Shown here: positions 7,116 through 43,876 of the stretch, piece by piece
Layout of the letters: every line of letters starts with the position of its first letter
Position numbering within the stretch: position 1 is the stretch's first letter
IMG/VR virus record: IMGVR_UViG_3300011008_000007
Length of the DNA: 64,000 bases
Source: a virus
Lineage: Duplodnaviria; Heunggongvirae; Uroviricota; Caudoviricetes
Strand: one strand, 5' to 3'
Notes under the pieces: generated by a model
Databases searched by the model: none
What the model was told of the DNA's origin: nothing
Seen by the model: the letters and a program-made list of their open reading frames with translations, nothing else
Program-made: the position numbers and the translations under genes

Positions 7116-7126
7116 GAGAAATAACT

Positions 7127-7318: not shown

Positions 7319-7553
7319 ACATACACCTTTGGAAAAATTGAACAACTCTATAACAAAAATCCTTGATGAAGGTAAAATTCCTAAAGGATTAACTCAGTAT
7401 AATGCCCATCAGCTCATTTATTCTTATAATTGTATAACAGAAAACGGTAGTGTTTCGTTATTTGACGAAACCGTTAAGAATTATTTGGAAAAATTGGGCT
7501 TTAAGTCTGAGGCAGAGGGAATCGGTTGGAAAATTTGGTCGGAAGGAGAATGA
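7311..7553 (+). CDS. hypothetical protein
   Basis: ORF with SD. Confidence 0.4.
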   Translation: MSKHTPLEKLNNSITKILDEGKIPKGLTQYNAHQLIYSYNCITENGSVSLFDETVKNYLEKLGFKSEAEGIGWKIWSEGE

Positions 7554-20928: not shown

Positions 20929-20933
20929 TATTA

Positions 20934-24870: not shown

Positions 24871-24876
24871 TAATAA

Positions 24877-25701
24877 ATGATTAAGATAAATGGCGAAGAA
24901 ATTATAATCGAAAGATTTTATGACGGTACACCGAGAATTAAAGTTAATGAGAAATACGGCGAATTAAGAAGCGTAACTCTTGACTGGATTTATGAGAATG
25001 ATGCTGAACTTGTAAGTCTTATAATGATTAACGGTCATTTAAGAGAACACGGTGTTGAAAAGATATTCTTAAATATGCCTTATTTACCCAATGCAAGAAT
25101 GGACAGAACAGAAAATGAAGAGGAAGTTTTTACACTTAAATATTTCTGTAAAGTGATTAATGGTATGAGTTTTGATGGGATTACGGTTTATGACGCTCAT
25201 TCGAGGGTCGGAGTTGCCTTATTGGACAAGGTTGTTGATATAAACCCAAAGAATGATGTTATCATAGTATTGATTAAGATTGGTGCCTTAGACGAATATT
25301 TAAATATTATTGATGATAATTTCATTTTGTATTTTCCTGACGATGGCGCCGCAAAAAGATATTCTAAAATGTTTCCTAATATCCCATTTGCTTATGGAGA
25401 TAAGGATAGGGATTGGAAAACAGGTAAGATAATTGATACCAAAGTCAAAGACAACGGTATTGACCTTGCAGGCAAGAACGTCCTCATTATTGATGATATA
25501 TGCAGTAAGGGCGGCACATTCTATTATAGTTCCAAGAAACTCAAAGAACTTGGCGTACATAAAATTAATCTCTTCGCCACGCATTGCGAAAATATTGTAT
25601 TAGAGGGTCAAATTTTAGATAGTGGGCTGATTGAAAAATTATATACGGTTGACACTATTTTTACAAAAACACATCCAAAAATTGAGGTGATTCCATATTG
25701 A
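24877..25701 (+). CDS. ribose-phosphate pyrophosphokinase (Prs)-like protein (possible ADPR-pyrophosphate synthetase Adps)
   Basis: MPYLPNARMDRT (Prs IPYxGYARQDR motif) and PRPP-binding loop NVLIIDDICSKGGT; 274 aa, shorter than canonical Prs. Confidence 0.6.
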   Translation: MIKINGEEIIIERFYDGTPRIKVNEKYGELRSVTLDWIYENDAELVSLIMINGHLREHGVEKIFLNMPYLPNARMDRTENEEEVFTLKYFCKVINGMSFDGITVYDAHSRVGVALLDKVVDINPKNDVIIVLIKIGALDEYLNIIDDNFILYFPDDGAAKRYSKMFPNIPFAYGDKDRDWKTGKIIDTKVKDNGIDLAGKNVLIIDDICSKGGTFYYSSKKLKELGVHKINLFATHCENIVLEGQILDSGLIEKLYTVDTIFTKTHPKIEVIPY

Positions 25702-27272: not shown

Positions 27273-27742
27273 TGATTAGGATTGTTGATGGCGATTTATT
27301 AGAAAGTAAAGCTAACATTATTGCACATCAAGTTAATTGTCAAGGAGTAATGGGTTCGGGTGTGGCAAAAGCCATAAAAAAGAATTATCCGTATGCTTTT
27401 AAATGTTATAAAGAATACATAAAAGAAAATTCTCCCGAATTGGTATTTGGATTTTGTCAGCTTGTACCCATTTATCTTCCGTCTGGAAAACCAAAATATA
27501 TAGCAAATTTATTTGGACAGTTTGATTATGGATATAACGGAGATTGCTACACAAACATAGACAAGCTCCGCACGGCTTTTCTTGCATTAAATGAATTTGC
27601 AGAAGAAGAAAACCTAACCGTTGCTATGCCATATAAAATTGGCTGTGTTCGTGGCGGCGCAAACTGGAACGAGGTTTTAAAAATGATTTGCAATATTTTT
27701 CAAAACGTTTACGTCGAAATTAGGCGTTTAGATAGAGGTTAA
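27272..27742 (+). CDS. macro domain protein (ADP-ribose binding/hydrolase)
   Basis: IIAHQVNCQGVMGSGVAKAI matches the Macro-domain Gly-rich ADP-ribose pocket motif. Confidence 0.55.
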   Translation: MIRIVDGDLLESKANIIAHQVNCQGVMGSGVAKAIKKNYPYAFKCYKEYIKENSPELVFGFCQLVPIYLPSGKPKYIANLFGQFDYGYNGDCYTNIDKLRTAFLALNEFAEEENLTVAMPYKIGCVRGGANWNEVLKMICNIFQNVYVEIRRLDRG

Positions 27743-27744
27743 TT

Positions 27745-28503
27745 ATGTATGATATGATTACGAAAATAAAAGAAGATTGCGTTAAATGGATTAGCTCGTG
27801 GTTTAATAAGAATGGTTGGCAATGTAATGCAATCGTTGGTATTTCTGGTGGAATTGATTCAAGTGTAGTTGCCGCTCTTTGTGTAGAAGCTCTCGGCAAA
27901 GAACGTGTTATTGGTGTATTGATGCCGAATGGAGTTCAGCCAGATATTGATTATGCTTATAAGCTCATCAATCATTTAGGAATCGAGAGTATAGAAATCA
28001 ACATTAAAGATTCCGTAGATAATATCATAAAACAGATAGACAATGCTTCGGAGCAGACATTGATTAATTTGCCGGCACGAATTAGAATGTCAACATTATA
28101 TGCGGTTTCTCAAAGTAATAACGGCAGGGTAGCAAACACTTGTAATTTATCAGAAGATTATATTGGTTACTCAACAAGATATGGAGATAGTGTTGGTGAT
28201 TTTAGCCCATTGGCTCACTTTACTAAATCGGAAGTATTGTTGATTGCAGATAAATTGGGATTGCCTAAAGAACTAATTGAAAAGGTGCCGACAGATGGAT
28301 TGAGCGGCAAAACCGATGAAGAGAATTTTGGATTTACATACGAACAATTGGATAAGGAGATTAGAGGTTGTTATAATTATCCAAAGACCAATTTAGAGAG
28401 AGAAATCACAAATAAGATTGATGAACTACACAAGAAAAATGAGTTTAAATTAAAGCCTATGGATTGTTATGATTTCCACGGATTTAAACATTATACAAGC
28501 TAA
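27745..28503 (+). CDS. nadE: NH3-dependent NAD+ synthetase
   Basis: PP-loop GISGGIDSSVV and overall NadE-like length and order. Confidence 0.7.
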   Translation: MYDMITKIKEDCVKWISSWFNKNGWQCNAIVGISGGIDSSVVAALCVEALGKERVIGVLMPNGVQPDIDYAYKLINHLGIESIEINIKDSVDNIIKQIDNASEQTLINLPARIRMSTLYAVSQSNNGRVANTCNLSEDYIGYSTRYGDSVGDFSPLAHFTKSEVLLIADKLGLPKELIEKVPTDGLSGKTDEENFGFTYEQLDKEIRGCYNYPKTNLEREITNKIDELHKKNEFKLKPMDCYDFHGFKHYTS

Positions 28504-30967: not shown

Positions 30968-31214
30968 ACATACTGTAATCAAGAGAGTAACAAATTGAGT
31001 GGTGAGTAAAAAGCCTTTTGACAAATGGAGAAATTTTATTAGAATAAGTTAATTCCTCTCCCTTGAAAGGAGAAAATTTCGGTTAAAGCCCGAAATAAGA
31101 TTTTAAAGTTTGGATAAAGAAAAAGATAACGTCGCGCGAGTTATCTCCTATAGGTGTAAGTCCTATGGCTCAATTTTACATAGATAAACTAAAGATTAAG
31201 GAGTTTATTTTACT

Positions 31215-32804
31215 ATGTTTGAAAACATTTTACCGTATTTGACAATCGGGGGCGTTGTTCTGGCTATTGTTCTTGCAATAATTATTTTCCTTTGCAAGAT
31301 TTACAAGGTAGCGGACATCGACAAAGCTCTCATTATTACGGGTGGTAAGGAACCCATTATTAAGGTTTCCGGCGGCAGTTTCGTAGTTCCGATTTTCCGC
31401 AAGGCACAGTATTTCGACTTGTGTATGCTAACGGTAACGGCGGATGAAGACGAAGTAAAAACCAGTACGTCAGTTCCTATCATTATTGATTGGACAGCTC
31501 AAATTAGACCTGATATTCACAACTTAGAGAATCTAAGAAAAGCAATTATCTCGTTTAAAGAGAGAGGTCAAGATGGAATCATTAATGACGTTGGTTTAAC
31601 TCTTACTGGCGTAGTTCGTGACATTGTTGCTTCAATGACACCAGAGGAAGTCCAGAGAGATAAAGTCACTTTTGCCGAGAACGTAAGAAATAACGTTGCG
31701 GACGAAATGATTAATATGGGTATGGAAATCGTTTCTCTTAATATCCAAGACATTAGCGATAACAATGGTTATTATGACAATATTGCTCGTCTTGATATGG
31801 AAGATAAACGTCGAGAGGCTGAAAATAAGATTGCTGCTGTTGACCAGTCGGTTCGCACACAGAAAGCCGAATCCGAAAAGATTGCCTCTCAGAATGAGCT
31901 CGACTCAGAGCTTGCCGTAGCCGAAAAGCAGAGAGATAATAATATCAAAATTGCGGGATTTAAGGCAGAAACCGATAAAGCTAATGCCGATGCTTCAATT
32001 GCCGGCGAATTGCAGAAAACCAAAAGGCAGCAGGAGATTGCTAAGGAACGTGGTCAAGTACAAGTAGTTGAACAGGAACAGGCAAATCTTGCGGCGCAAA
32101 AGGAAAAAGAAGTAATTGCGACAAGAGCAGCGGCAGAAAAGCAGAAGAAAGAAATCGACGCAGAGGCAGAATCTAATGTAAATAAGATTTCCGCTGACGC
32201 AAGAGTTTCGGTTGCCGAAAAGGACGCTAACGCGGTTAAGATTACCGCAGACGCTAATGCCGAGAAAATCCGCAAAGAAGGTATGGCTGAGGCAGACATT
32301 ATTAAGGCTAAAGGTCTTTCTGAGGTCGAGATTGCCAAATCAAAAGGTATGGCAGAAGCCGAAGTTGAAAAGCAGAAACTTATGGCGCAAGCTGAAGGTG
32401 AAAGAGCACTTGCTGAGGCTCGTGCGGCAAATGAGAAAGTCAACTTTGAGATTGAAAAACTCAAAATTGAGAATGATGCTAAGATTACCATTGCAACCAA
32501 GACGGCTGAGATTATGGCTAATATCGGTCAGAATGCTGAGTTCGTTAATATTGGCGGAAATGGCGGAGCAGGTAGCACAGGAAATGTGCTTATCGACACT
32601 CTCAATGCGGTGCCAGGTCTTATGAGGTCGCTTAATGCACAAAATGAGGCATTAAATGGTCGCTCAATTAACGAAGAGCTCAATAATTTGGTTTCAAGCG
32701 TTGCCGCACCAATCAAGGGTTTGCTTTCAACCTCAGAAACAACCAATATCAATACGAGTGAAGAATCAAAACTTCCGAGTAGCGATGCGGTTGAAGAGGA
32801 CTAA
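31215..32804 (+). CDS. flotillin-like SPFH/band-7 protein
   Basis: N-terminal TM, SPFH-like core, then a long Ala/Glu/Lys-rich coiled coil (KAEAEAEVEKQK...) as in bacterial flotillins (YqiK/FloA). Confidence 0.6.
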   Translation: MFENILPYLTIGGVVLAIVLAIIIFLCKIYKVADIDKALIITGGKEPIIKVSGGSFVVPIFRKAQYFDLCMLTVTADEDEVKTSTSVPIIIDWTAQIRPDIHNLENLRKAIISFKERGQDGIINDVGLTLTGVVRDIVASMTPEEVQRDKVTFAENVRNNVADEMINMGMEIVSLNIQDISDNNGYYDNIARLDMEDKRREAENKIAAVDQSVRTQKAESEKIASQNELDSELAVAEKQRDNNIKIAGFKAETDKANADASIAGELQKTKRQQEIAKERGQVQVVEQEQANLAAQKEKEVIATRAAAEKQKKEIDAEAESNVNKISADARVSVAEKDANAVKITADANAEKIRKEGMAEADIIKAKGLSEVEIAKSKGMAEAEVEKQKLMAQAEGERALAEARAANEKVNFEIEKLKIENDAKITIATKTAEIMANIGQNAEFVNIGGNGGAGSTGNVLIDTLNAVPGLMRSLNAQNEALNGRSINEELNNLVSSVAAPIKGLLSTSETTNINTSEESKLPSSDAVEED

Positions 32805-32885: not shown

Positions 32886-32960
32886 TGAGCCGTCGCCAAG
32901 CGGTAAGGCACAGGACTTTGACTCCTGCACTCGTGGGTTCAAATCCCGCCGGCTCAGCCA
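32886..32960 (+). tRNA. tRNA-Gln(TTG)
   Basis: Hand-folded cloverleaf: acceptor TGAGCCG/CGGCTCA, anticodon loop CTTTGAC, T-arm GTGGGTTCAAATCCCGC, CCA encoded. Confidence 0.7.
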
Positions 32961-33261
32961 ATAGGTTCTCATTGACCTTAGAATAATGGGCGAGACCAAA
33001 TGAGAAGCAGGTATAAATCTCCGTCAGCAGAGAAAGTTGAGAGAATGGCTGCGTGTTATGTGTTATCTTTTATAGTTTTTCATAGGACTTTAGCGTGAAT
33101 AAAGAAGTAAGTAAAAACTATATATGGCGAGTTCAGTAATAGATGACGCAATATACAAAGTATATTGTTTGAAAGTATAAAATCCCAGGGCTCTTTTATA
33201 CGAGTAAATAATACAAAAATATCGGGGCAGTACCGAGGCTCGTTCACCAACTTAAAAATAT

Positions 33262-33729
33262 GGGGCAGTTCTGGTATTCGACAGGCTGTTGAAAGAATAA
33301 ACTTCGCAGGTAAGCTACAACCTTAATGTGCAAACTTAAAAATAAACGACAAAACTGTTGTAACACTTCATCCTGCTCTTGTAGCAACACTCTCACAGAG
33401 GGCTGCCGCATAAGCAAATTTGGATGCCAAAACAATACTCCTGCTATTCGGTAAGTATTTGAGGTTTAGGATAGAGTAGCAAAATGGTTTCTTGCTTCCA
33501 CAAAAAGTAAGTGGTGGATTTGGTTTGACGAAACTTGTCATCCCCATTCGGAATATCACGAGACCGTCACCGAATTAAAATATAAGGAGTATTATTATGG
33601 AATGCGATTAATTTAATAAAACTATGAGAACGGTAGAGGCTCGGACGGCAAAAAGAATACCTATTGCGTAAAAAGAGTTTATTTAAGTATGTAGTTTGGA
33701 CACGAGTTCGATTCTCGTCTGCTCCACCA
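33262..33729 (+). ncRNA. ssrA: tmRNA (SsrA)
   Basis: 5' GGGGCAGTTCTGGTATTCGACAGG (tmRNA consensus GGGGCUGAUUCUGGAUUCGACGGG). 3' GGACACGAGTTCGATTCTCGTCTGCTCCACCA (T-arm + acceptor pairing with the 5' end + CCA). Candidate tag ORF 33330-33413 ending ...QRAAA-stop; length 468 nt is long. Confidence 0.6.
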
Positions 33730-33802
33730 GTTGTTGTTGCCAAATATTAACATTGTAAACAACGATAGGTTTTATCATTTTCCTAACAAAAAAATGATTT
33801 AT

Positions 33803-33895
33803 GGCGCAGTAACCCTAATTGGTAAGGGAGCAGTTTGCTAAACTGTGAGTAACCGAGCAATCGGCTTGTAGGTTCAAGTCCTACCTGTGCCGCCA
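33803..33895 (+). tRNA. tRNA-Ser(GCT), type II
   Basis: Acceptor GGCGCAG/CTGTGCC, anticodon loop TTGCTAA, long variable arm, T-arm GTAGGTTCAAGTCCTAC, CCA. Confidence 0.65.
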
Positions 33896-33912
33896 CATTT
33901 GGAGGATATAGC

Positions 33913-34683
33913 ATGATTTACATCACGGGTGACTGTCACGCAAAATTCGATAGATTTTCAACTAAAAGATTTCCCGAACAAAAGGAAATGACCAAAGATG
34001 ATTATGTTATCATTTGCGGCGATTTTGGCGGAGTATGGAATCATTCTGTATCAACCTCGGAAGAAAAGTATTGGCTTGATTGGCTCAATGACAAACCTTT
34101 CACAACATTATTTGTTGACGGTAATCACGAGAATTTTGACCGACTGAAAGATTTTCCTCGCAAAAATTGGAACGGAGGAATGGTACACGAAATTAGACCA
34201 AGTGTTCTCCATCTAATGAGAGGTTATGTGTTCGATTTAGGGGGAAAGAAATTCTTTACCTTTGGTGGAGCTAAAAGTCACGATATTCAAGATGGTATTT
34301 TAGACCTAAAAGATTATAAAAGCCTTTCTGATTTGGTTAAAGATTATAATCTTCGCACATTTCATTTAAGACAAATGTTGAGAATAAACCATTATTCTTG
34401 GTGGAAAGATGAACTTCCGACAACCGCCGAAATGGAACGAGGAATTAAAAATTTAAACAAAGTTGATTTTAAGGTCGATTATGTGATTTCACATTGCCCA
34501 CCAAGAGAAGTAAATGCTTGGCGAGGATATTATGACCAAGACAGATTAACAAAGTATTTTGATAAACTGCTCGAAATAGGATTAAGCTTCAAAGAATGGT
34601 GGTCAGGACACATTCATTGTAATGAATACGGAGTGTTCAGTAAATATAATGTTATCTATGAAGATATTAAGAGGTTAGTTTAA
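33913..34683 (+). CDS. calcineurin-like metallophosphoesterase
   Basis: Motifs ITGDCH, ICGDFGG, DGNHEN of the metallophosphatase fold. Confidence 0.6.
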   Translation: MIYITGDCHAKFDRFSTKRFPEQKEMTKDDYVIICGDFGGVWNHSVSTSEEKYWLDWLNDKPFTTLFVDGNHENFDRLKDFPRKNWNGGMVHEIRPSVLHLMRGYVFDLGGKKFFTFGGAKSHDIQDGILDLKDYKSLSDLVKDYNLRTFHLRQMLRINHYSWWKDELPTTAEMERGIKNLNKVDFKVDYVISHCPPREVNAWRGYYDQDRLTKYFDKLLEIGLSFKEWWSGHIHCNEYGVFSKYNVIYEDIKRLV

Positions 34684-34994
34684 TGATAAAAATAGTCAGA
34701 GCCGCCATTAGATTTAAACAACTTAATTCGGATAGATACTCTTCCGACGAGTATCGAATTAAATATGGTTGGCGACACCATTTGATTTTTCAAGAAATGC
34801 AAAATGAGGGTATTGTTTATAATCGTAACGATTATCAATCTGGCTTTATAACAAACGAACATCCTATACATTTTGTAGATAGAGAAGAAGCTGCAAAAAT
34901 TGCCTATAAAGCCGGACAAACGCCAATATTAAAAGAAACTTTGTTTTCTGAGGATTTATGGAATATTGACGGAACATTGGTGTACGAAAAATAA
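34683..34994 (+). CDS. hypothetical protein
   Basis: ORF, coupled. Confidence 0.4.
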   Translation: MIKIVRAAIRFKQLNSDRYSSDEYRIKYGWRHHLIFQEMQNEGIVYNRNDYQSGFITNEHPIHFVDREEAAKIAYKAGQTPILKETLFSEDLWNIDGTLVYEK

Positions 34995-35008
34995 TACAAT
35001 AAAAATGC

Positions 35009-35084
35009 GAGCATAGTGTAGCTGCATAGCATATTTGCCTTCCAAGCAAATGGCGCGGGTTGGAATCCCGCTGTTCGCTCCACG
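35009..35084 (+). tRNA. tRNA-Gly(TCC)
   Basis: 76 nt cloverleaf; anticodon loop CTTCCAA; T-loop TTGGAAT is atypical; CCA encoded. Confidence 0.55.
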
Positions 35085-35516
35085 GAAGTTTAAGATTAAA
35101 TACAGTCCACAAGAACTAACATATCCTTATTCTATGGTTCTTACTCACGACTGGCGCCTGCGCTGGTAAGTTAAGGTTCTTATTGCCGAAGTACAAGGTG
35201 GCTGTTGCCTAAACAGATATGTAAATTTGGGGTCGAACTGCCCTTAGCCAAAATAGTTTTTCGCCAACTGAATGAAGTTGTTGGGGTTTTGCATATGACC
35301 AAATACATATGTGAGGTTTGTATTCTCGGATATACAGGTTAAACATTCAACCACAAAATGTTCGGCGTTTGGTTCGTATCGTCGAGAGGAATATAATGAA
35401 CAAGGTGAGATTCAAACCTTTTAAATATGTGCTTTTCGAGTTGGCTACGAAGTTGCTACATATAGGAATTAGGATAGCAACCTACTTTGGCGGCGGTCAA
35501 GATAACAGCTATATAT

Positions 35517-35591
35517 GTGGTCGTTGGTGTAACGGTAGCACGTTTGTTTGTGGCACAAAAGGAGTGAGTTCGATTCTCACACTTCCAACCA
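35517..35591 (+). tRNA. tRNA-His(GTG)-like (acceptor stem irregular)
   Basis: Anticodon arm TTTGT-TTGTGGC-ACAAA and T-arm GTGAGTTCGATTCTCAC are clear; the acceptor strands could not be paired cleanly by hand. Confidence 0.35.
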
Positions 35592-35594
35592 TAA

Positions 35595-35663
35595 GTCCGT
35601 ATAGTTTAAGGAACAAAACACCGCAAGATTGCGGAAACGTGGGCTCGGTACCCACTATGGGCA
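35595..35663 (+). pseudogene. degenerate tRNA-like element
   Basis: 7 bp acceptor-like pairing GTCCGTA/TATGGGC, D-like GTTT/AAAC, T-like stem GTGGG/CCCAC with non-canonical loop CTCGGTA, no canonical anticodon loop. Confidence 0.25.
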
Positions 35664-35771
35664 AACATAGTTGATGGCGCTATGGTCAGTAAGCTATCCG
35701 CGTTTGATTGTAGGCGTAGAGGTTGACATCTAACTACAATCTGGCACCTCGGAAAGACGGGGCATATATGT

Positions 35772-35846
35772 GGCGGGTTAGTCAAGTGGCTAAGACACTA
35801 CCCTTTCACGGTAGTAGCACGGGTTCGAGTCCCGTACCCGTCACCA
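35772..35846 (+). tRNA. tRNA-Glu(TTC)
   Basis: Acceptor GGCGGGT/ACCCGTC, anticodon loop CTTTCAC, T-arm ACGGGTTCGAGTCCCGT, CCA. Confidence 0.65.
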
Positions 35847-36020
35847 TTTGAGAAACATCAAAGGGAAGATTAAACATTAAAGACTACGACAGGGATTATC
35901 GCTGAAAAGTCGGTTAAGCGATTAATAAAGTTCCGAACTCGAAAAAGCGTTTTTGATAACAAACGGTAAACATTATCATCGCAACTAATCAAGCGGTTGT
36001 AGTAAAACAAAAGAGGCTAT

Positions 36021-36320
36021 ATGAGAATGAATAGGCTGATACGAGATATGAGAAAGAATAGACTGACACGCAAAGAAAAGAAAATGGCACACCAGCAATG
36101 TAAAAACTGCCGGCACTTTGGTGAGGGTTGTTGGAATGTTGATGGAGATTGTGTTAATTATCTTTCTAATACCGATACCAATTTTATTGTTATTGATATG
36201 ACTGTTGAAGTTAATAAAGATGTCGATGTGCGTATATTTTCTCAATATTTAACTAATTGGTTTGATTCTCACGGTTGGTCTTACTGTGGTTCAATAAAAC
36301 CATACGACGAAAAAGAATAA
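36021..36320 (+). CDS. hypothetical Cys-rich protein
   Basis: ORF with SD; CKNCRHFGEGC motif. Confidence 0.4.
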   Translation: MRMNRLIRDMRKNRLTRKEKKMAHQQCKNCRHFGEGCWNVDGDCVNYLSNTDTNFIVIDMTVEVNKDVDVRIFSQYLTNWFDSHGWSYCGSIKPYDEKE

Positions 36321-36325
36321 TATTT

Positions 36326-36401
36326 GCGCCATTAGCTCAGTTGGTAGAGCACTCGGCTTTTAATCGAGGTGTCCGGAGTTCGAGCCTCCGATGGCGCACC
36401 A
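36326..36401 (+). tRNA. tRNA-Lys(TTT)
   Basis: Acceptor GCGCCAT/ATGGCGC, D-arm TAGCTCAGTTGGTAGAGCA, anticodon loop CTTTTAA, T-arm CGGAGTTCGAGCCTCCG, CCA. Confidence 0.75.
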
Positions 36402-36590
36402 TTAAAGCACTAACAGCAAAATTATATAATAATTTAGGGTACAATTAATTATTTAAAGTGCTTTGAAAAGACGCGCACAGCAGTTAAATACATAATAATT
36501 TTGTTTTTGTTTTCTCATATGTTATTTACTCCTTTTAAAATATAGTGTTGATTGTAAGCGTCTTGACAAAAAAAGAAAGGATTTTGTATT

Positions 36591-38165
36591 ATGTCATTTT
36601 TTAACGAACTTAGAAAGAACATTGATGAGATTAATAATCTCCAAAAGACCGAAAACGGAGCAGTAGGTTATAAAACTACTGGCAAGAAGTTGTTGGATAT
36701 GAACTTCTCGATTCCCAAGTACAGAAAGGCAAATGAGGCTGAAATTATAGCCGATTTTGAACAGTCATTTAACGAGAACGAGATTCTTGCTATTCTTTGG
36801 ATGTTTTTCGCAAGAGATGTTCGTGGCGGACTTGGCGAAAGAAGATTATTCCGCATTTTATTCAACTGGTTTTGCAAAGAGCACACCAAGTATGCAAAAG
36901 AGTTGCTTGAATGTGTAGCAGAATATGGTCGCTGGGACGACCTTGTTAAAGCTACGGACAACACTCCTGTATGGGATGATGCGGTAGTGCTTATCAAAAA
37001 GCAGCTCACAGAAGACTTATTGAATTTTGAGGCTTCTAAAAGTATCTCACTTTTGGCTAAGTGGCTTCCGAGTGAAAGGACTTCAAGTCAGAAAACGAGA
37101 ATCCTTGCCCGCAAGTTAGCAAAGGCGCTTTCAATCAACATTGCTGATTATAACCGCATTTGTGTTAAGCTGCGCAAGTATCTTGATGTAACTGAAATCA
37201 AGATGAGCGCAAAAGAGTGGGAGAATATCAATTATTCTACGGTTCCTTCGGGCGCAAATGTAAAGTACAACAATGCTTTTCTGCGCAATGACGAAGAAAG
37301 ACGCAGAGCATATTTGGAGTCTTTGAAAAAGGGCGAAACTAAAATCAATGCTTCTGCTTTGTTCCCACACGACATTGTACATAAGTATAGCAAAAATTCT
37401 TATTGGCACGGTTCAGTAGGCTCATATGACGAAGCTCTTGAACAGTTGTGGAAGGCTCTTCCCGATATGGGCGGACTCGAAAACACGATTGTTGTTGCCG
37501 ACGGCTCTGGTTCAATGACTTGTAGAGTTGACCCAAATAGTACAACTTCTGCGCTTGAAGTAGCCAATGGTTTAGCTTTGTATTGTGCTGAACATTGCAA
37601 GGGAGAATTTAAGGATAAATATATCACATTCTCATCCAGACCTCAGTTTGTAGATTTGAGCAACAAAATCTCACTACACGACAAATTGGCTGAGGCTTAC
37701 AGACACGACGAGTGTTCAAATACCGACATCCAGGCTGTATTTGACCTTATACTCCATACTGCAACTTCAACCAATGCCAAACAAGAGGATATTCCTAAGA
37801 CTATTCTTATTGTTTCCGATATGGAGTTCGATGCCGCAACAAGTACAGGCGGTTGGTATGGTTCATCATCTTCTCTCACTCCGTCACTTTTTAAAGTAAT
37901 TGACAGAAAATATAAGGAAGCAGGTTATCAGTTGCCGCGCCTTGTATTTTGGAATGTAAACTCTCGCACAGGCACAATTCCAATGAAAGAGAATGACCTT
38001 GGAGTAACTTTGGTTAGTGGCTTCTCAATTTCGATTGTGCAGATGGTGCAGAACGGCGAAACCGACCCATACCTCAATCTTGTCAAGGTTCTTATGGGAG
38101 ATAGATATATGCCCATTTGTGCAAAATTACTCGGAAATACATTTAATAAGGAGAACTACAAATGA
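36591..38165 (+). CDS. vWA-domain protein, Ro60/TROVE-like (Rsr-like) candidate
   Basis: MIDAS motif VVADGSGSMT about 300 aa in; C-terminal blocks (IVSDMEFDAA...LPRLVFWNVNSRTGT...LGVTLVSGFS) co-linear with the Ro60 vWA region; about 520 aa like Ro60. Confidence 0.45.
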   Translation: MSFFNELRKNIDEINNLQKTENGAVGYKTTGKKLLDMNFSIPKYRKANEAEIIADFEQSFNENEILAILWMFFARDVRGGLGERRLFRILFNWFCKEHTKYAKELLECVAEYGRWDDLVKATDNTPVWDDAVVLIKKQLTEDLLNFEASKSISLLAKWLPSERTSSQKTRILARKLAKALSINIADYNRICVKLRKYLDVTEIKMSAKEWENINYSTVPSGANVKYNNAFLRNDEERRRAYLESLKKGETKINASALFPHDIVHKYSKNSYWHGSVGSYDEALEQLWKALPDMGGLENTIVVADGSGSMTCRVDPNSTTSALEVANGLALYCAEHCKGEFKDKYITFSSRPQFVDLSNKISLHDKLAEAYRHDECSNTDIQAVFDLILHTATSTNAKQEDIPKTILIVSDMEFDAATSTGGWYGSSSSLTPSLFKVIDRKYKEAGYQLPRLVFWNVNSRTGTIPMKENDLGVTLVSGFSISIVQMVQNGETDPYLNLVKVLMGDRYMPICAKLLGNTFNKENYK

Positions 38166-38995
38166 GTAAGAATTACAGCGAATTTGACAAACGAATGAAA
38201 AAATATGAGTTTGTCACAAGAACACATTTGATGACACGAACTCCTGCTATTATTAGAATTGACGGAAAGGCTTTCCATACGTTTACAAAGGGATTTAAAA
38301 AGCCTTTCGACGAAGTTCTGCAAAACAGTATGCAGGAAACAATGAAGTATTTATGTGAGAATATCCAGGGATGTGTTCTTGGATATGCGCAGTCTGATGA
38401 AATCACTTTGGTTTTGACAGATTATAAGACTCTCGAAACTTCGGCTTGGTTCGATTATAACATTCAAAAGTGCGCAAGTGTTGCGGCAAGTATGGCGACT
38501 ATGGCATTTAACAGAGCATTCCGCAAGAATGTTTTTGACTGGATGGAAGCTAATAACCCCGAAGATAAGTCTAATAATGAAGAAACTATAGCATACCATA
38601 ATCAGTTCGGTTCATATAACGCAGCATTTAATAGGGGAGCTCTATTTGATGCAAGGGTATTCAATATTCCCAAAGAAGAAGTTTGTAACAACATTCTTTG
38701 GCGCCAACAAGATGCTATCAGAAATTCTATCCAAATGGTAGGACGTTCATTCTATTCCGACAAAGAGCTTTTCGAGAAATCCACAAAGGATATTCAGGAA
38801 ATGTTATCTACGGACAAGAAAATAAATTGGGCTGAGGATTATCCTATTAGATTTCAGCGTGGTAGTTGCTGCATTAAGAAGTATGATGAGAATACCGGTC
38901 ATAATGAGTGGGTAATTGATAATGAAATCCCTATTTTCAAAGAAGAGGGAAGAGCATATATTGATAATCTTGTATTTTGCGGCGAAAATTTATAA
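38162..38995 (+). CDS. Thg1-like protein (tRNA-His guanylyltransferase family / 3'-5' polymerase)
   Basis: IIRIDGKAFHTFTKGFKKPFDE ... VLGYAQSDEITLVL matches Thg1 catalytic blocks (RxDGxxFHxF, xKPxDxR, YGQSDEYSF). Confidence 0.65.
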   Translation: MSKNYSEFDKRMKKYEFVTRTHLMTRTPAIIRIDGKAFHTFTKGFKKPFDEVLQNSMQETMKYLCENIQGCVLGYAQSDEITLVLTDYKTLETSAWFDYNIQKCASVAASMATMAFNRAFRKNVFDWMEANNPEDKSNNEETIAYHNQFGSYNAAFNRGALFDARVFNIPKEEVCNNILWRQQDAIRNSIQMVGRSFYSDKELFEKSTKDIQEMLSTDKKINWAEDYPIRFQRGSCCIKKYDENTGHNEWVIDNEIPIFKEEGRAYIDNLVFCGENL

Positions 38996-39036
38996 ATAAA
39001 ACTTGCATTTTATTTATAAAACTATCTAAAAAATTA

Positions 39037-39065
39037 TTGACAAATCAATAAAAATATGCTATAAT
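39037..39065 (+). promoter_or_regulatory. promoter TTGACA-N17-TGcTATAAT
   Basis: Hexamers 39037-39042 and 39060-39065. Confidence 0.55.
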
Positions 39066-39157
39066 ACAGTTGTAATGAGGGCGAGGGTAAGTTTAACAAC
39101 TCAAACTCCCTCGCCTTTATTGGAAATAATAAACCTATCAATAAAATTAGAGGAAAT

Positions 39158-39343
39158 ATGTATTATAAATTTATTTGTCCAAAGTGCGGAAAGCATATTG
39201 AGTTACAGATACCGATTTCACAATATAGTTCGGAAGGGCATTTTTGTGAATGCGGAGCCGAATTACAACGTGACCCAAGCGACTTCTGTACAAACAGTAA
39301 AAGGAATATAGATGGATTCTTCGGAACGTCAACCAAAAGTTAA
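39158..39343 (+). CDS. small zinc-ribbon protein
   Basis: CPKCGK...CECGAEL pairs; RBS AGAGGAAA. Confidence 0.4.
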   Translation: MYYKFICPKCGKHIELQIPISQYSSEGHFCECGAELQRDPSDFCTNSKRNIDGFFGTSTKS

Positions 39344-39346
39344 TAT

Positions 39347-39429
39347 GCGGGTGTGGCGAAATTGGCATACGCGCGAGATTTAGGTTCTCGTGTTTCGGCG
39401 TGCAGGTTCAAGTCCTGTCACCCGCACCA
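39347..39429 (+). tRNA. tRNA-Leu(TAG), type II
   Basis: Acceptor GCGGGTG/CACCCGC, anticodon arm CGAGA-TTTAGGT-TCTCG, long variable region, CCA. Confidence 0.6.
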
Positions 39430-39627
39430 AAATATAAGACACATACAGCAATCAATACATAAATTTGGCTCAAACTTTTAATTTGAATACCTTTTTATAG
39501 TGTCTTGGAGTATAAATTCCTTTCATTTTATAAATAAGGCGCACACAGCGATTTTACAATGGATTAATAAAAGCTCTTGAAAAGTTTTTTAGAGGGTTCA
39601 AGTCCCTCAACCGCGTCTTGAAATATG

Positions 39628-39703
39628 CACCATTAGTACAATCGGTTAGTACAGTCGGCTGATAATCGACAGACTGTGGTTCAAATCCACGATGGTGTAC
39701 CAG
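39628..39703 (+). tRNA. tRNA-Ile(GAT)
   Basis: Acceptor GCACCAT/ATGGTGT (G1-U72), D-stem GTAC/GTAC, anticodon loop CTGATAA, T-arm TGTGGTTCAAATCCACG, CCA. Confidence 0.6.
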
Positions 39704-39749
39704 TGTGTTTGATTTAGCACACAAATTCAATCGTTTTATTATTTTTTTC
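39704..39749 (+). terminator. intrinsic terminator
   Basis: Hairpin GTGTGTTTGATTTAGCACAC followed by T-tract TTTTATTATTTTTTT. Confidence 0.55.
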
Positions 39750-39799
39750 ATAAGAAAAATATCTGTTGCTTGCTGTCCGGTTTAAAGCAACAGGTATAT

Positions 39800-39894
39800 G
39801 GCAGCCTAACCCTAATTGGTAAGGGAGTAGTCTTGAAAACTACCAGTAATCGCCGAGAGGTGGTGTCTCGGTTCAAGTCCGAGGGCTGTCGCCA
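39800..39894 (+). tRNA. tRNA-Ser(TGA), type II
   Basis: Acceptor GGCAGCC/GGCTGTC, anticodon arm GTAGT-CTTGAAA-ACTAC, long variable arm, T-arm CTCGGTTCAAGTCCGAG, CCA. Confidence 0.65.
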
Positions 39895-40569
39895 ATGACC
39901 TGATGGCGCGTCAGGACGGTTTGGGATTAGCCCATCACAGCCGATACCGTAAAAACAGAAGACCTCTCAATAATAAAAGTATTAACTGGATTATTGAAGT
40001 CGCCCACCTGTTCCAAAGTCGGTGTTTAAAATAGATAGTCAATGTTGCGAATATAGACGGGGCAATTTTCATATAAGCAAGATGAACTCAATAGAGAACC
40101 CATCGGCAAAGTCCTCGTTAGCCACCTCCGCGGGCACTGCTTCTATGGCTGATGGTGCCTATTGACTTCCATATAAACGAGAAGAACGCAACTCTCTGTT
40201 CGGGTCGAAATGATATATACCCGTTCGGTGCTGATACCTATCAGACGGTTATATGGCGTTACACTCCTACCAATACGATAAATTGGGGAAACACAATAGG
40301 GAGAAGAATAATGAAAGCACATTACAACAAGCAATTTTCAAACTATGGACGATTGATTGTGCATTCGGTGTGGTTGCATTTATCATAGGGCACAAATTGC
40401 GACAATTAAATAATTAGTTGGAAGAAAAGGGCGAAAAAGACATAAGCTATGACTTCCCGATAATCTTCAAGGTGTGGACGTGGTGTTGGCTATGCAAACC
40501 AACTGATAGTGTTTAGGCATAGAGTAGAAATTATCTCTTCCAGCTAATTGTTTTGATTGTTTTAGATAT

Positions 40570-40655
40570 GCGGGTGTGATGGAATTGGCAGACATAAGGG
40601 ACTTAAAATCCCTTGGGTTTATCCCGTATCAGTTCGAGTCTGATTACCCGCACCA
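40570..40655 (+). tRNA. tRNA-Leu(TAA), type II
   Basis: Acceptor GCGGGTG/TACCCGC, anticodon arm AGGGA-CTTAAAA-TCCCT, variable hairpin, T-arm ATCAGTTCGAGTCTGAT, CCA. Confidence 0.65.
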
Positions 40656-40743
40656 AAGCAAGAATATTATAATAAAGTTTATACCCTTTGCGGGTCTTAT
40701 AAAAAAGTTTTAATTCTTGCACAGACACAGACAGCAAACCTTA

Positions 40744-40813
40744 AACGAATTAGTCAAACGGTAAGACACACCTCGAAACGGTGCAATTGTGGGTTCAACT
40801 CCCATATTCGCAA
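40744..40813 (+). pseudogene. degenerate tRNA-Phe-like element (anticodon loop TCGAAAC, C33)
   Basis: T-arm GTGGGTTCAACTCCCAT and anticodon GAA-like loop, but only 5 bp of acceptor pairing and C at position 33. Confidence 0.3.
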
Positions 40814-40839
40814 AGCGTGTCTGGAAACAATTGAATATG

Positions 40840-40967
40840 AGGGGTATAGCTCAATTGGTAGAGCGCTGTAATTTTTCAGTATCTTGCAAAAGATACATAC
40901 AGCAAACCATTACATAAAATAATGCTTAGGGAGCCAGATGTTACAGGTTCGAGTCCTGTTGCCCCTC
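40840..40967 (+). ncRNA. atypical tRNA-like gene 1 (128 nt; Ala-like 5' half; internal Cys-like TTGCAAA hairpin)
   Basis: Canonical acceptor AGGGGTA/TGCCCCT, D-arm AGCTCAATTGGTAGAGC and T-arm ACAGGTTCGAGTCCTGT, but about 77 nt between them. Contains hairpin GTATCTTGCAAAAGATAC + ACAGCAAACC. Confidence 0.45.
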
Positions 40968-40975
40968 GCAAATAT

Positions 40976-41097
40976 GCCGGTGTAGCCCAATGGTAGAGCA
41001 GCGGACGCATAATGTGTCTTGATTTAGAAAACACTTGCAGCAATTAAGCGGTCAAGAAAACCGTGTGTTGGAGGTTCGATTCCTCTCCGCCGGCACC
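40976..41097 (+). ncRNA. atypical tRNA-like gene 2 (122 nt; Thr-like ends)
   Basis: Acceptor GCCGGTG/CGCCGGC-A-CCA, D-arm TAGCCCAATGGTAGAGC, T-arm GGAGGTTCGATTCCTCT. Central insert with outer helix CGCATAAT/ATTAAGCG, hairpin GTGTCTTGATTTAGAAAACAC + GCAGCAATT. Confidence 0.45.
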
Positions 41098-41100
41098 AAA

Positions 41101-41220
41101 TGGGAGCGTAGCTCAGTTGGTAGAGTAATAGTAATGAAAAGTTGTCTTGTAAAGACAATAACAGCAATCTATTAAGTTCCAAACTATGTGTCGCAAGTTC
41201 GATTCTTGTCGCTCCCTCCA
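41101..41220 (+). ncRNA. atypical tRNA-like gene 3 (120 nt). Equals tRNA-Gly(TCC) if a 43 nt insert between positions 31/32 is removed
   Basis: Acceptor GGGAGCG/CGCTCCC-T-CCA. With the insert AATGAAAAG-TTGTCTTGTAAAGACAA-TAACAGCAAT-CTATTAA excised, anticodon arm ATAGT-GTTCCAA-ACTAT. The insert itself holds a Tyr-like hairpin TTGTC-TTGTAAA-GACAA. Confidence 0.5.
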
Positions 41221-41223
41221 TAT

Positions 41224-41363
41224 GGGGATGTAGCTCAGTCGGTTAGAGCAGCGTTAAAATTTATTAAGTGTCTTGTTTGTAAAGATACACCCAGCAATCT
41301 TATTTTAATGAAGAAAATAGCTTGTTAAGCCGCAGGTCGTAGGTTCGAGCCCTACCATCCCCA
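41224..41363 (+). ncRNA. atypical tRNA-like gene 4 (140 nt). Resembles tRNA-Asn(GTT) with a 66 nt insert 5' of the anticodon loop
   Basis: Acceptor GGGGATG/CATCCCC. 3' half ...TTGTTAA-GCCGC-AGGTC-GTAGGTTCGAGCCCTAC is Asn-like. Insert has outer helix TTAAAAT/ATTTTAA, hairpin GTGTCTTG...AAAGATACAC + CCAGCAATC. No CCA encoded. Confidence 0.45.
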
Positions 41364-41376
41364 CTCTCCTTTATTA

Positions 41377-41461
41377 GGGCGGGTCGCATAGTGGCAATTG
41401 CGGTGGGCTGTAAACCCACTTCGGTAACGATTCGTAGGTTCGAGTCCTACTCCGCCCACCA
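41377..41461 (+). tRNA. tRNA-Tyr(GTA), type II
   Basis: Acceptor GGGCGGG/TCCGCCC, anticodon arm GTGGG-CTGTAAA-CCCAC, variable arm, T-arm GTAGGTTCGAGTCCTAC, CCA. Confidence 0.65.
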
Positions 41462-41545
41462 AACCCTTTTGTGGCAATCTAAGTCAATATCATAAGATGT
41501 GAGTCCATAATAAATTATTCCTTGCTTTGGGTACAAGGAAAACAT

Positions 41546-41619
41546 ACAGGGTATGGTGTAATGGTAACACACTACATTTGGGATGTAGGGTCGCGGTTCA
41601 AATCCGATACCTTGTGCCA
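41546..41619 (+). tRNA. tRNA-Pro(TGG) (weak T-stem)
   Basis: Acceptor ACAGGGT/ACCTTGT-G-CCA, anticodon arm CTACA-TTTGGGA-TGTAG; T-stem has only 3 clean pairs. Confidence 0.45.
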
Positions 41620-41738
41620 GTCTGTGAAAGCAGACCAAAGGTACTGACATATTCACCTATCAAGTGGTGGGGCAAAACCCTACTACGAAAGAAGTTGGGG
41701 GAACTTCTATAAAAAACCCCGTCCAATCCTATTTATAT

Positions 41739-41825
41739 GGGAGCGTGGTGGAACTGGCAGACACGCGGGACTCAAACTCCCGCGCCGTTCGCGGCGTATG
41801 GGTTCAAATCCCATCGCTCCCACCA
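41739..41825 (+). tRNA. tRNA-Leu(CAA), type II
   Basis: Acceptor GGGAGCG/CGCTCCC-A-CCA, anticodon arm CGGGA-CTCAAAC-TCCCG, variable hairpin GCCGTTCGCGGC, T-arm ATGGGTTCAAATCCCAT. Confidence 0.7.
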
Positions 41826-43040: not shown

Positions 43041-43334
43041 ATGAACATAGATATATTTTTAACGGTGCGCGCCTTGTGTGGTGTGGCAATTATGATTAAT
43101 CTTGCTTTGTATTTTTTGTTTAGACATAAAGAGTATTCAGCTTTGATTTATTCGGTAGTTTTAGGCGGCATTTTTACCATAGATTTTATTGCAGCGCTTA
43201 ATGAAGGTACAGTTTGGCGCCCTCTAATATTTGGCATAGGTTTGATAGCAATAATCTTTTTAATTGCCGCAGATATAAATTTTTATTTATCTGATGATGA
43301 ATATGAAGAACTGGAGCAGAACGATACGGAATGA
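43041..43334 (+). CDS. small membrane protein
   Basis: Two hydrophobic segments; ATG 43041 preferred over track start 43029. Confidence 0.4.
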
Positions 43335-43876
43335 ATATAACAAAAATCAGTCGCTATTTAAGTATGATACTAAGACATAAGCCAGAAGAAATTGGAATTA
43401 CACTCGATGAACACGGATGGGCAAACACCAAAGATATTCTTGCTGGATTAAAAATTGATATGCCGACACTACAACATATTGTAAAAACCGATAATAAACA
43501 ACGTTATTCATTTAACAAAGATGAGAGTAAAATTCGGGCAAATCAAGGACATTCTATTCCTGTTGACGTTGAACTCGAAGAAGTAATGCCACCAGCCGTT
43601 TTATATCACGGAACCGGTAAGAAATATGTAGATTCTATTGATAAGCAAGGATTAATACCAAAATCTCGCCTATATGTTCATTTGTCTTTGGATAAAGAAA
43701 CTGCATATGAAGTGGGTAAGAGGCACGGTTCTCCTTATATTTATAAGGTTGATTCGGAAGCTATGCACAAAGATGGATATAAATTCTTCCTGTCTGTAAA
43801 TGGTGTTTATTTAACTAAAGAAGTTCCTACAAAGTATTTGAGTTTGGATTACAGTATGTTTTCAAGAGGTATTTAA
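43331..43876 (+). CDS. RNA 2'-phosphotransferase Tpt1/KptA family
   Basis: [28 protein letters not shown] ... [28 protein letters not shown] matches the KptA/Tpt1 signature (LRH, HGT, VHLS). Confidence 0.65.

Follow-up and report, generated by a model that had tools for sequence, protein, structure and literature searches.

The region described here lies in a 64 kb window (the whole stretch of DNA analysed) of the viral record IMGVR_UViG_3300011008_000007, which forms part of a phage genome of ~162 kb. Between positions 32886 and 41825 the window contains an island of RNA genes, comprising a transfer-messenger RNA (tmRNA), about 12 ordinary tRNAs and several atypical tRNA-like RNAs, together with a gene at 36591-38165 for a predicted RNA-binding protein that resembles Ro60. 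An island of this composition, 9 kb in length, had been put forward in the original prediction, and is confirmed by ARAGORN and Rfam with minor corrections. ARAGORN makes 15 tRNA calls within the island, all on the + strand, and one more at 31032; the Rfam tRNA model (RF00005) gives 18 matches at the gathering score, three of which are 116-128 nt long (40840-40967, 40976-41095 and 41102-41217). The atypical RNAs had been regarded as degenerate or insertion-bearing tRNA-likes awaiting processing. We find instead that they belong to a conserved and covarying RNA family that is tied to the gene for a widespread Ro-like protein, and by analogy the two are best read as a divergent Ro60/Y-RNA system. 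In what follows related loci are denoted by L-numbers, where L148 is phage PX29, L150 is BPS17W1, L151 is Acquire49, L152 is LP-124 and L159 is Astolliot.

At least eight RNAs of the island share an element that we call the handle. This is a stem of 7-10 bp, the 5′ strand of which is followed by two or three nucleotides and then by the near-invariant sequence CAGCAA(U). The strands of the stem are often AAGRNNN and NNNYCUU, with a G following the latter. Four of the eight RNAs are free-standing modules, in which the two ends of the RNA form the stem around a payload resembling either an anticodon stem-loop or a tRNA, and the other four are tandem units in which the handle is inserted into a tRNA. 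All are on the + strand. Module 1 (36402-36466) is located 125 nt upstream of the Ro-like gene and has the sequence UUAAAGCACU-AA-CAGCAAA-(37 nt)-AGUGCUUUGA; L022, L024 and L026 likewise have modules at this place upstream of the gene. Module 2 (39435-39507) is UAAGACAC-AUA-CAGCAAU-(48 nt)-GUGUCUUG. Its payload mimics an anticodon stem-loop (UCAAA-CUUUUAA-UUUGA), and the orthologue in L022 (at 12875) has a compensatory change in the payload stem. Module 3 (39536-39620), read directly from the sequence, is AAGGCGC-ACA-CAGCGAU-(payload)-GCGUCUU-G, with the variant core CAGCGA, and module 4 (40722-40823) is CAGACAC-AGA-CAGCAAA-(79 nt)-GUGUCUG-G. Two of the tRNAs called by ARAGORN are in fact the payloads of these last two modules and not ordinary tRNAs. 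The first (39547-39617), called as a 71-nt tRNA-Ser(tga), comprises an anticodon-like hairpin plus a T arm; the second (40744-40813) is a degenerate tRNA-Phe(gaa), and the block that contains it is 85% identical in L022. The payload of L024 is again a mimic of an anticodon stem-loop (AUUGA-CUUUUAA-UCAAU), and other payloads are tRNA-likes that contain a T arm. Overall, hairpins like an anticodon stem-loop occur in 19 of 46 payloads, compared with 8.2 ± 2.4 after shuffling of the payloads. Rfam 15 has no family that matches the handle RNAs, and no description of them was found in the searchable literature, which does not include several key reviews.

The four tandem units lie one after another near the 3′ end of the island. 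Unit 1 (40840-40970; loop UUAGGGA) scores 46.5 bits with the Rfam tRNA model, with an insertion of 66 nt, unit 2 (40976-41098; loop CAAGAAA) scores 36.8 bits and unit 3 (41102-41220; loop UUCCAAA) 48.3 bits, so that all three exceed the gathering score of 29. Unit 4 (41224-41366; loop UUGUUAA) is recognized in part, at 23.3 bits, which is below that score. CCA is encoded by units 2 and 3. In all four the handle reads GUGUCUUG-loop-AAGACAC-NNA-CAGCAAU; it is closed by a small loop, and constitutes an insertion of 45-95 nt between tRNA positions 29 and 30. The remainder of each unit supplies the acceptor, D and T arms. On the 3′ side of the handle there is a tRNA-type loop of 7 nt, and the 2-bp stem closing it stacks on the stem of 3 bp found after the D arm. 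These two segments share one continuous 3′ strand and together make a composite anticodon stem of 5 bp, whose 5′ strand is split between positions 29 and 30 and is therefore interrupted. Pairing in the composite stem amounts to 85%, compared with 25-45% when the partners are slid, and its inner pairs fall in columns to which our covariance model had fitted no structure. Since this stem pairs, the units are complete cloverleaves that bear a 45-95 nt arm at 29/30.

The covariance model, R1, was built from eight units. With scores of 80-123 bits it finds 16 units, some in the window and others in phages both related and unrelated, and it scores ordinary tRNAs at 65 bits or less; the four window units score 116, 92.7, 108.4 and 101.3 bits respectively. 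When the 16 units are aligned, 96.9% of the cells are paired; sliding the partners lowers this to about 45%. Of the 26 pairs, 23 show compensatory change, among them all seven of the handle hairpin. The stem covariation also favours a local hairpin within each unit over pairing between neighbouring units. When the stems of the handle and of the anticodon arm are counted in the tRNA-like units, G.U pairs exceed A.C pairs 12 to 1, and therefore the structure acts in the RNA of the + strand. Each of the 16 units lies near a gene of the same family as the Ro-like gene (DUF2828, see below), at most ~6 kb away if upstream and 3 kb if downstream, and most lie within 1.5 kb.

The order of the halves is reversed between the two forms. 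Free-standing modules read AAGACAC-AUA-CAGCAAU-(payload)-GUGUCUUG, and the two forms are thus circular permutations of one architecture. The shared design consists of a helix, then CAGCAAU, which departs at the helix's inner end from the 3′ end of one strand, and then a module derived from tRNA. We had considered that TCTTG...CAGCAA might be a promoter; this was dropped in view of the covariation of the helix, the strand-specific G.U pairs and the reversed order of the halves in the free-standing modules. A brute-force test of splicing, in which all possible deletions were passed to ARAGORN, was discarded as the program proved too permissive, and was replaced by direct counting of pairs.

We note an atypical arrangement in PX29, where a tRNA-like with two hairpins resembling T arms (L148 9009-9125) is annotated as 'tRNA-OTHER'. 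It is the first of three atypical tRNA-likes arranged in tandem downstream of the DUF2828 gene, and the second of them has the variant core CCGCAAU.

The distribution of the handle was analyzed in a metagenomic set of 18 DUF2828 loci totalling 378 kb, taking a stem of at least 7 bp to define a module. There were 95 modules on the strand of the gene and 33 on the opposite strand, compared with 25 ± 5 in shuffled sequence. Thirty-nine of the 95 are within 1 kb of the DUF2828 gene, in 16 of the 18 loci. Four loci have no tRNA within 10 kb (L003, L004, L005 and L018), and modules are still present ~50-900 nt from the gene. As a blind control we reused 120 unrelated viral loci, mostly chance matches, that came from an over-loose scan with the pattern TAGAGC..TCTTG..CAGCAA. 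The density of strict modules, per 100 kb of strand, is 1.6 in this set and 11.6 in the DUF2828 loci. Two or more strict modules on one strand were present in five of the 120, and four of these five are exactly the four that encode DUF2828 (by tblastn), on the same strand as the modules.

Clear modules abut the DUF2828 gene in eight of ten cultured phages, i.e. Aeromonas PX29, Salmonella Felixounavirus BPS17W1, Mycobacterium Acquire49, Listeria LP-124, Staphylococcus S-CoN_Ph7, Enterococcus EfsSzw-1, Bacillus Thrax2 and Synechococcus BUCT-ZZ01. The phage types covered include Felix O1-like, Listeria P100-like and cluster L mycobacteriophages. In PX29 one of the units is annotated in GenBank as a tRNA-Leu in two pieces. 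A tRNA-island control drawn from the 120 loci was uninformative, there being one such locus without DUF2828, and phage T5 was used instead. Its tRNA island, which comprises 25 tRNAs together with eight stable RNAs that are annotated, contains no handle module, and the interval 1-50 kb lacks a DUF2828 gene.

Other RNAs were observed close to DUF2828 genes. A GOLLD RNA (198.8 bits) lies 1 kb upstream of the gene in L006 (8552-8997), and a ROOL RNA match that is below threshold (87.4 against 99.1 bits) lies 1 kb upstream of the gene in LP-124 (L152 3462-4013). tRNAs with a CUA anticodon, of amber-suppressor type and called 'Pyl' by ARAGORN, are found nearby in L002 (7854-7929), L006 (7479-7552) and L012 (11525-11599), which hints at recoding of stop codons in those phages.

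The Ro-like protein, encoded on the + strand, has 524 aa and matches the Pfam families DUF2828 (E 1.7e-33) and DUF7788 (E 4e-44). A helical-repeat ring is followed by a vWA domain with the MIDAS (metal ion-dependent adhesion site) motif DGSGS. The sequence DGSGSM occupies residues 304-309, with D304, S306 and S308 invariant and G307 near-invariant in 36 homologues. A phmmer search of the PDB with the protein gave nothing significant. Comparison of structures was needed because searches for TROVE with sequence only were not significant, and an AlphaFold2 (AF2) model was therefore built on the alignment of 36 homologues, with a predicted local distance difference test score (pLDDT) of 79. Using Foldseek against the PDB the top match is 9kop, the crystal structure of the TROVE protein of phage phiLo (PMC12135203), with E 9.5e-7 over 513 aligned columns; the second is human Ro60 (9nf8_A) with E 4.5e-4. 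It had been proposed that the gene encodes a Ro60/TROVE-like vWA protein, an idea that lack of a TROVE fold would have undermined. The best matches of the model are to Ro60 structures, so that the fold and the MIDAS motif stand while the match to the TROVE family in Pfam does not, and the predicted structure shows the product to have the Ro60 architecture in a divergent family. The assignment of a Ro-like fold is not new, since current annotation already uses it. The protein belongs to PHROG 850 ('RNA-binding protein'), and DUF2828 is present in 709 cultured phage records, with the annotation 'Ro-like RNA binding protein' in mycobacteriophages. No RNA partner of the family was found described in the searchable literature, which lacks some key reviews.

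Ro60 and its Y RNAs are conserved from bacteria to humans. In canonical Y RNAs the stem formed by the 5′ and 3′ ends is next to a conserved GNCGAA bulge, and the gene for the RNA is on the strand of the Ro60 gene, no more than 4 kb away (PMC4201824; PMC12135203). Those of the YrlA class carry a tRNA-like domain (PMC4201824). Among phages, Ro60/Rsr with Y RNAs (YrlA, Yrn1) is found in mycobacteriophages, Caulobacter CcrColossus, Bacillus phage G and the Thermus phage phiLo (Yrl1/Yrl2). The present locus is similar in a number of respects. The protein is a ring of helical repeats with a vWA domain and MIDAS, the small RNAs are encoded a few kb away on the same strand, often in several copies, and each combines a variable, tRNA-mimicking module with a terminal stem that adjoins a short unpaired motif of conserved sequence. 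The expectation that tRNA-like RNAs should adjoin the Ro-like gene, as Y RNAs do, is thus satisfied. A tRNA-like domain such as YrlA has is complete in the four tandem units, and the YrlA order itself (T arm, closed acceptor hairpin, D arm) is seen in BPS17W1 (L150 8806-8932) and Acquire49 (L151 6522-6644). We think it probable, by this analogy, that the island is a phage tRNA and tmRNA operon region combined with a Ro60-like ribonucleoprotein system, in which the handle RNAs are the Y-RNA analogues of a divergent Ro60 family; the conserved handle suggests a new class of Y-RNA-like tRNA mimics. There are also differences from known Y RNAs. The window units are unpermuted tRNAs, with native 5′ and 3′ ends, an intact anticodon loop and the handle at 29/30, and the copy number, eight in this island, is higher. 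Tandem tRNAs can yield artefactual YrlA matches (Chen et al.), and we dismissed the window matches to YrlA (24-31 bits against a threshold of 69) as artefacts of this kind, each spanning the junction of two adjacent units.

A number of observations weigh against this assignment. The pairing of protein and RNA is drawn from co-location and analogy. The motif is CAGCAA(U) rather than GNCGAA, and the Rfam YrlA model (RF02553) reaches 39.8 bits on Acquire49 (L151), a locus without tRNAs, against its threshold of 69. The protein, a member of DUF2828/DUF7788, differs from Ro60 in having no match to Pfam TROVE; a profile of the 36 homologues run against the PDB reaches the TROVE chains 9l5y and 9kop at just E 1.1, and the TM-scores of the AF2 model to Ro60 are only 0.44-0.53. 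Two of the 18 metagenomic loci (L011 and L020) have no clear module near the gene, and two of the ten cultured phages (Vibrio R10Z and Pseudomonas Astolliot) are ambiguous. In many loci the DUF2828 gene is inside a tRNA cluster, so that co-location could partly reflect the tRNA operons, and the DUF2828-negative tRNA island used for comparison is that of T5, a single case. The module search demands complementarity, so that the stems pair by construction, and the evidence is therefore the excess over controls rather than the pairing itself. Lastly, the intact anticodon loops of the units would also fit interrupted, functional tRNA genes. Separately, we observe in Astolliot (L159 4914-5026) a weak handle, GGGAAU-C-CAGCAAU ... 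AUUUCC, that seems to flank an annotated and apparently normal tRNA-Arg.

The Ro-like gene is accompanied by enzymes that act on RNA. Its stop codon is overlapped by the start of a gene (38162-38995, + strand) for a Thg1-like 3′-5′ nucleotidyltransferase, an assignment made earlier that Pfam (Thg1, E 4.9e-31) and PHROG 4717 (E 1.1e-85) uphold. Its best relative of known structure is the Bacillus thuringiensis Thg1-like protein (TLP; PDB 4kgk, E 4.7e-58), compared with E 1e-5 for eukaryotic Thg1, and by sequence it is thus predicted to be an enzyme of the bacterial TLP type. The bacterial TLP subgroup carries out templated 3′-5′ repair of tRNA 5′ ends. A candidate substrate is the tRNA-His(GUG) at 35518-35591 (+ strand), which has A73, a G at -1, and acceptor mismatches 4-69 U.U and 5-68 C.U. 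In L022 (9046-9119) both mismatches are U.U and position 73 is C, and in L026 (9132-9205) there is a U at -1 and no G. The most economical role for the enzyme would be to provide G-1 of the phage's own tRNA-His.

A gene for the NAD+-dependent RNA 2′-phosphotransferase Tpt1/KptA (43331-43876, + strand) lies 1.5 kb downstream of the island, as had been noted. It is a full-length match (Pfam 6.6e-46; PDB 7kw8 1.2e-47) that passes the equivalog cut-off of NCBIfam NF002014 (242 against 239 bits). Directly upstream of the island a block for salvage and synthesis of NAD+ (24337-28503, + strand) encodes an isochorismatase-type nicotinamidase-like protein, a phosphoribosyl pyrophosphate (PRPP) synthetase-like protein, NAPRTase/NAMPT, a Macro domain (27272-27742) and NAD synthase, and is syntenic in L022 and L026. 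From the known chemistry of Tpt1 and from PMC7824862 we would link the enzyme with its NAD+ substrate and with the Macro domain, which could handle the ADP-ribose-phosphate by-product. The calcineurin-like protein encoded at 33913-34683 (+ strand) is indeed a metallophosphoesterase (Pfam Metallophos 3.6e-11; PHROG 1649 2.9e-34). It had been counted as part of a repair toolkit; however, it is of a generic family with no close relative of solved structure, and Pfam, PHROG and the PDB reveal no link to RNA ends.

Upstream of the island there is a gene for an SPFH/Band-7 (flotillin-like) protein at 31215-32804 (+ strand; Pfam Band_7 2.6e-17, NCBIfam FloT below cut-off). The additional ARAGORN call noted above is an AU-rich tRNA-like RNA (31032-31103, + strand; Rfam tRNA 48.3 bits) located 112 nt upstream of it, with the loop CUUGAAA and a non-canonical T loop. 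A 'b7a-tRNA' beside Band-7/SPFH was predicted by Burroughs and Aravind (2016), as summarised in 10.1101/312249. Judged by that summary the present arrangement is similar, a tRNA-like RNA being directly upstream of Band-7 with a Ro-like gene nearby, and differs from the system as summarised in having no RtcB beside Band-7. Band-7 is also near DUF2828 in L022 and L026, and in Acquire49 is ~1 kb upstream of the Ro-like gene (L151 3098-3976). The same suite of Band-7, Ro-like protein, Thg1, Tpt1 and NAD+ salvage recurs in related and in cultured phages, and in some there is an RNA ligase, RtcB or PNK in addition. In L021 an Rnl1-type ligase is upstream of DUF2828 with one small open reading frame (ORF) between, in LP-124 RtcB and an RNA ligase are near DUF2828, and in mycobacteriophage LeBron DUF2828 is found alongside Band-7, PNK and RNA ligase (PMC13148394). 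A role as a platform for RNA repair has been suggested for Ro/TROVE and a tRNA-like partner, both in phages (PMC7824862) and, next to RtcB, in bacteria (10.1101/312249). In the present window no RNA ligase or kinase was found in the ~50 ORFs scanned with Pfam, a scan that left aside small ORFs (~50) as well as the ~98 kb of genome beyond the window, and none of the ORFs scanned encodes an enzyme that would form a 2′-phosphate junction. The earlier failure to recognize a ligase or kinase is thereby reproduced.

The chief rival explanation is that the handle insertion is a new protein-dependent tRNA intron and the tandem units are interrupted tRNA genes. The 45-95 nt would be excised at 29/30, a ligase would leave a 2′-phosphate that Tpt1 would remove with NAD+, and Macro would clear the by-product. 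The composite 5-bp stem with its 7-nt loop (U33, purine 37) in 11-13 of the 16 units and the fixed point of insertion favour this, as do the genes for Tpt1, the Macro domain and NAD+ synthesis within the window, the two-piece annotation in PX29 and the CCA encoded by units 2 and 3. Moreover, the standard tRNAs of the island called by ARAGORN do not include Asn and Trp, and unit anticodons such as GUU (Asn) and CCA (Trp) would fill these gaps. Yet the anticodons and the bodies agree poorly. The comparison uses the identity elements that each synthetase requires. By eye, loops with the Leu anticodon GAG are carried by bodies whose variable region is short, the CCA anticodon of unit 3 is accompanied by U73, and unit 2 has A33 with a Thr-like acceptor. 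Unit 1 duplicates the tRNA-Pro that is intact at 41546. The insertion resembles that of intron-containing tRNA genes in its fixed position in the anticodon arm, but differs from the introns at non-canonical positions in archaea and the group I introns of bacteria in being 45-95 nt long and placed in the 5′ strand of the stem rather than in the loop. It is too small for group I, matches no intron family in Rfam at E up to 1, and exhibits no bulge-helix-bulge motif on inspection by eye; and the window ORFs scanned reveal no splicing endonuclease or RNA ligase. The conserved core is shared with handles that stand free, without tRNA exons, in many phages. We consider an intron quite unlikely. A lesser rival would make the modules the punctuation of phage tRNA operons (RNase processing sites, attenuators or terminators), unrelated to DUF2828. 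Many modules do lie between tRNA genes or a few nt upstream of one (e.g. in L007 and L001), the 21-kb L007 locus has about nine of them, and the conserved end ...CUUG could be cleaved. Against this, modules persist in the four loci with no tRNA within 10 kb and in Acquire49, with none within 5 kb; the T5 tRNA island has none; and four of the five multi-module loci in the blind set were the four that encode DUF2828. The payloads are themselves structured and tRNA-like. Finally the single-stranded motif of 6-7 nt is invariant in phages of Actinobacteria, Firmicutes, Proteobacteria and Cyanobacteria, and this invariance across host phyla argues for a phage-encoded reader rather than diverse host RNases. 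We judge punctuation to be a still poorer prospect than an intron. Stable RNAs that are not tRNAs, some of them tRNA-like, are known among phage tRNA genes, i.e. RNA1, RNA2 and RNA3 of T5 and species 1 and 2 of T4, but those of T5 differ from the handle RNAs in having no CAGCAA handle.

Another possibility is decay, the atypical tRNA-likes being tRNA pseudogenes that have picked up random insertions and the motif being left over from a recent duplication. Four units side by side could be recent duplicates and their loops are partly non-canonical (A33 in unit 2). Nevertheless, the units diverge in sequence while compensatory changes keep every helix, and the architecture and CAGCAA core recur where the DUF2828 proteins are just 32-46% identical, so that decay can hardly be entertained. 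The original prediction in its strong form makes the Ro-like protein, the Thg1-like enzyme, the phosphoesterase and Tpt1 a single pathway that reseals tRNAs cut by anticodon nucleases, with the Ro-like ring and the tRNA-likes perhaps providing the scaffold for a ligase whose gene lies in another part of the genome; as such it overlaps with the explanation that we prefer. The locus resembles the phage sets for RNA repair and tRNA supply surveyed by Iyer et al. 2021 (PMC7824862), of which T4 Pnkp/Rnl1 opposing PrrC is an example, in combining a tRNA array with Thg1, KptA/Tpt1, a Ro/TROVE-type protein, a calcineurin-like phosphoesterase, NAD+ salvage and Macro. All of these genes are counted there as counter-measures to host attack on tRNAs, and handle RNAs are not described in that survey. 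The genes also co-occur in related phages, RNA ligase, RtcB or PNK are near or with DUF2828 in L021, LP-124 and LeBron, and the repair platform of Ro/TROVE with tRNA-likes cited above is a precedent. On the other hand, the described repair systems have at their core a ligase with a kinase or phosphatase, and neither ligase nor kinase is among the window ORFs scanned. The order and spacing of Thg1, Tpt1 and the phosphoesterase relative to DUF2828 vary (in L022 Thg1 is upstream, at 8.7 kb, and in L026 it is downstream, at 3.6 kb), many DUF2828 loci do not have these enzymes nearby, and the phosphoesterase is generic. Furthermore Tpt1 is needed only after ligation that forms a 2′-phosphate, for which no enzyme was identified here. 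The single pathway is a possibility on which we place rather less than even weight, and lean against. For the broader proposal of a toolkit, the part concerning supply of tRNA is sound, while that concerning repair is plausible by precedent and partly supported, because no RNA ligase or kinase is present among the ORFs scanned.

Returning to the Ro60/Y-RNA interpretation, the system would most likely work as follows. The handle RNAs would be transcribed together with the tRNAs and be freed by tRNA-processing enzymes. The Ro-like ring would then bind the handle, as canonical Ro60 holds the bulged GNCGAA helix of Y RNAs, leaving the tRNA-shaped part to engage proteins directed at tRNA. In this way a nuclease or repair enzyme might become attached to the ring, or the tRNA-shaped part might serve as bait for host anticodon nucleases, and the payloads that resemble an anticodon stem-loop could act as decoys. 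The neighbouring enzymes (the Thg1-like enzyme, Tpt1 together with the NAD+ salvage genes and Macro, and the metallophosphoesterase), along with the tmRNA and the tRNAs, would fit a module that sustains translation when host defences attack tRNAs, with these enzymes possibly linked to the ribonucleoprotein. In its most specific version, tRNA mimics with handles are held on a Ro60-like ring through CAGCAA as baits or sensors for nucleases or as guides for repair or decay enzymes, or else the handle is a protein-dependent intron, which would explain Tpt1. The mimics in question would be tRNAs with the arm at 29/30 or bare anticodon stem-loops (CUUUUAA, anticodon UUU, Lys), in phages of at least four bacterial phyla. 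So specific a proposal is speculative, and we regard it as unlikely to be correct as it stands.

The handle RNAs offer a candidate function for the DUF2828 family, including its members in workhorse phages (Felix O1-like, Listeria P100/A511-like and cluster L mycobacteriophages). If either the mimic or the intron interpretation is true, this would provide a function for a protein family of >700 cultured phage genomes and for the 'pseudo-tRNAs' that annotation pipelines discard, and many phage tRNA calls labelled 'tRNA-OTHER', 'intron-containing' or 'degenerate' may be functional mimics. A complete tRNA with an extra arm at 29/30 is structurally unusual. The stem plus CAGCAA beside the gene is a candidate ligand that is defined in sequence and available in tractable phages, and there are ties to the defences that target tRNA and the tRNA-based counter-measures of phages (PMC10264068, PMC11464382, PMC11555353).

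The ordinary RNA genes of the island begin with tRNA-Gln(UUG) at 32886-32960 and end with tRNA-Tyr, tRNA-Pro and tRNA-Leu(CAA) at 41377-41825, all on the + strand and called by both ARAGORN and Rfam. The tmRNA (33262-33729, + strand) matches RF00023 with 76 bits (gathering score 47, E 1e-27). It has tRNA-like ends including CCA, with the 3′ terminus ...CUCCACCA, and a plausible frame for the tag, ...DKTVVTLHPALVATLSQRAAA*, that ends AAA-stop. At 468 nt this phage tmRNA is unusually long. Its relative in L026 is at 6919-7407, and contains a match to the wcaG RNA family at 7123-7215 (48 bits against a gathering score of 42). It had been thought that the Ro-like protein, the Thg1-like enzyme and the phosphoesterase were the only proteins encoded inside the island, but three small genes are also called there, one of the T4_Y16D family (34683-34994), one of 97 aa (36027-36320; 99 aa with an alternative start at 36021) and one with a zinc ribbon (39158-39343).

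A non-coding block of ~400 nt (39895-40300) lies 3′ of tRNA-Ser. It has a counterpart in L026 (13305-13730) with 80% column identity, in which conserved and variable segments alternate and there is at least one compensatory change (CCUGA/UCAGG to CCUAA/UUAGG). The block has no Rfam match and its folding energy is ordinary (z about 0); it may be a structured RNA of a new type.

No near-identical cultured phage was found, the DNA matches being restricted to part of the Thg1 gene in Fusobacterium phages. Elsewhere the window encodes a reverse transcriptase adjoining a SPASM-domain protein (19894-21998), a tyrosine recombinase (12419-13345), an ORF (15544-16545) with a weak recombinase match far below threshold, and a protein with a GmrSD N-terminal domain (9887-10429). 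A PcfJ-like protein is encoded at 49747-50889, and another at 4665-6560 of L003, an unrelated viral contig, a few kb upstream of DUF2828.

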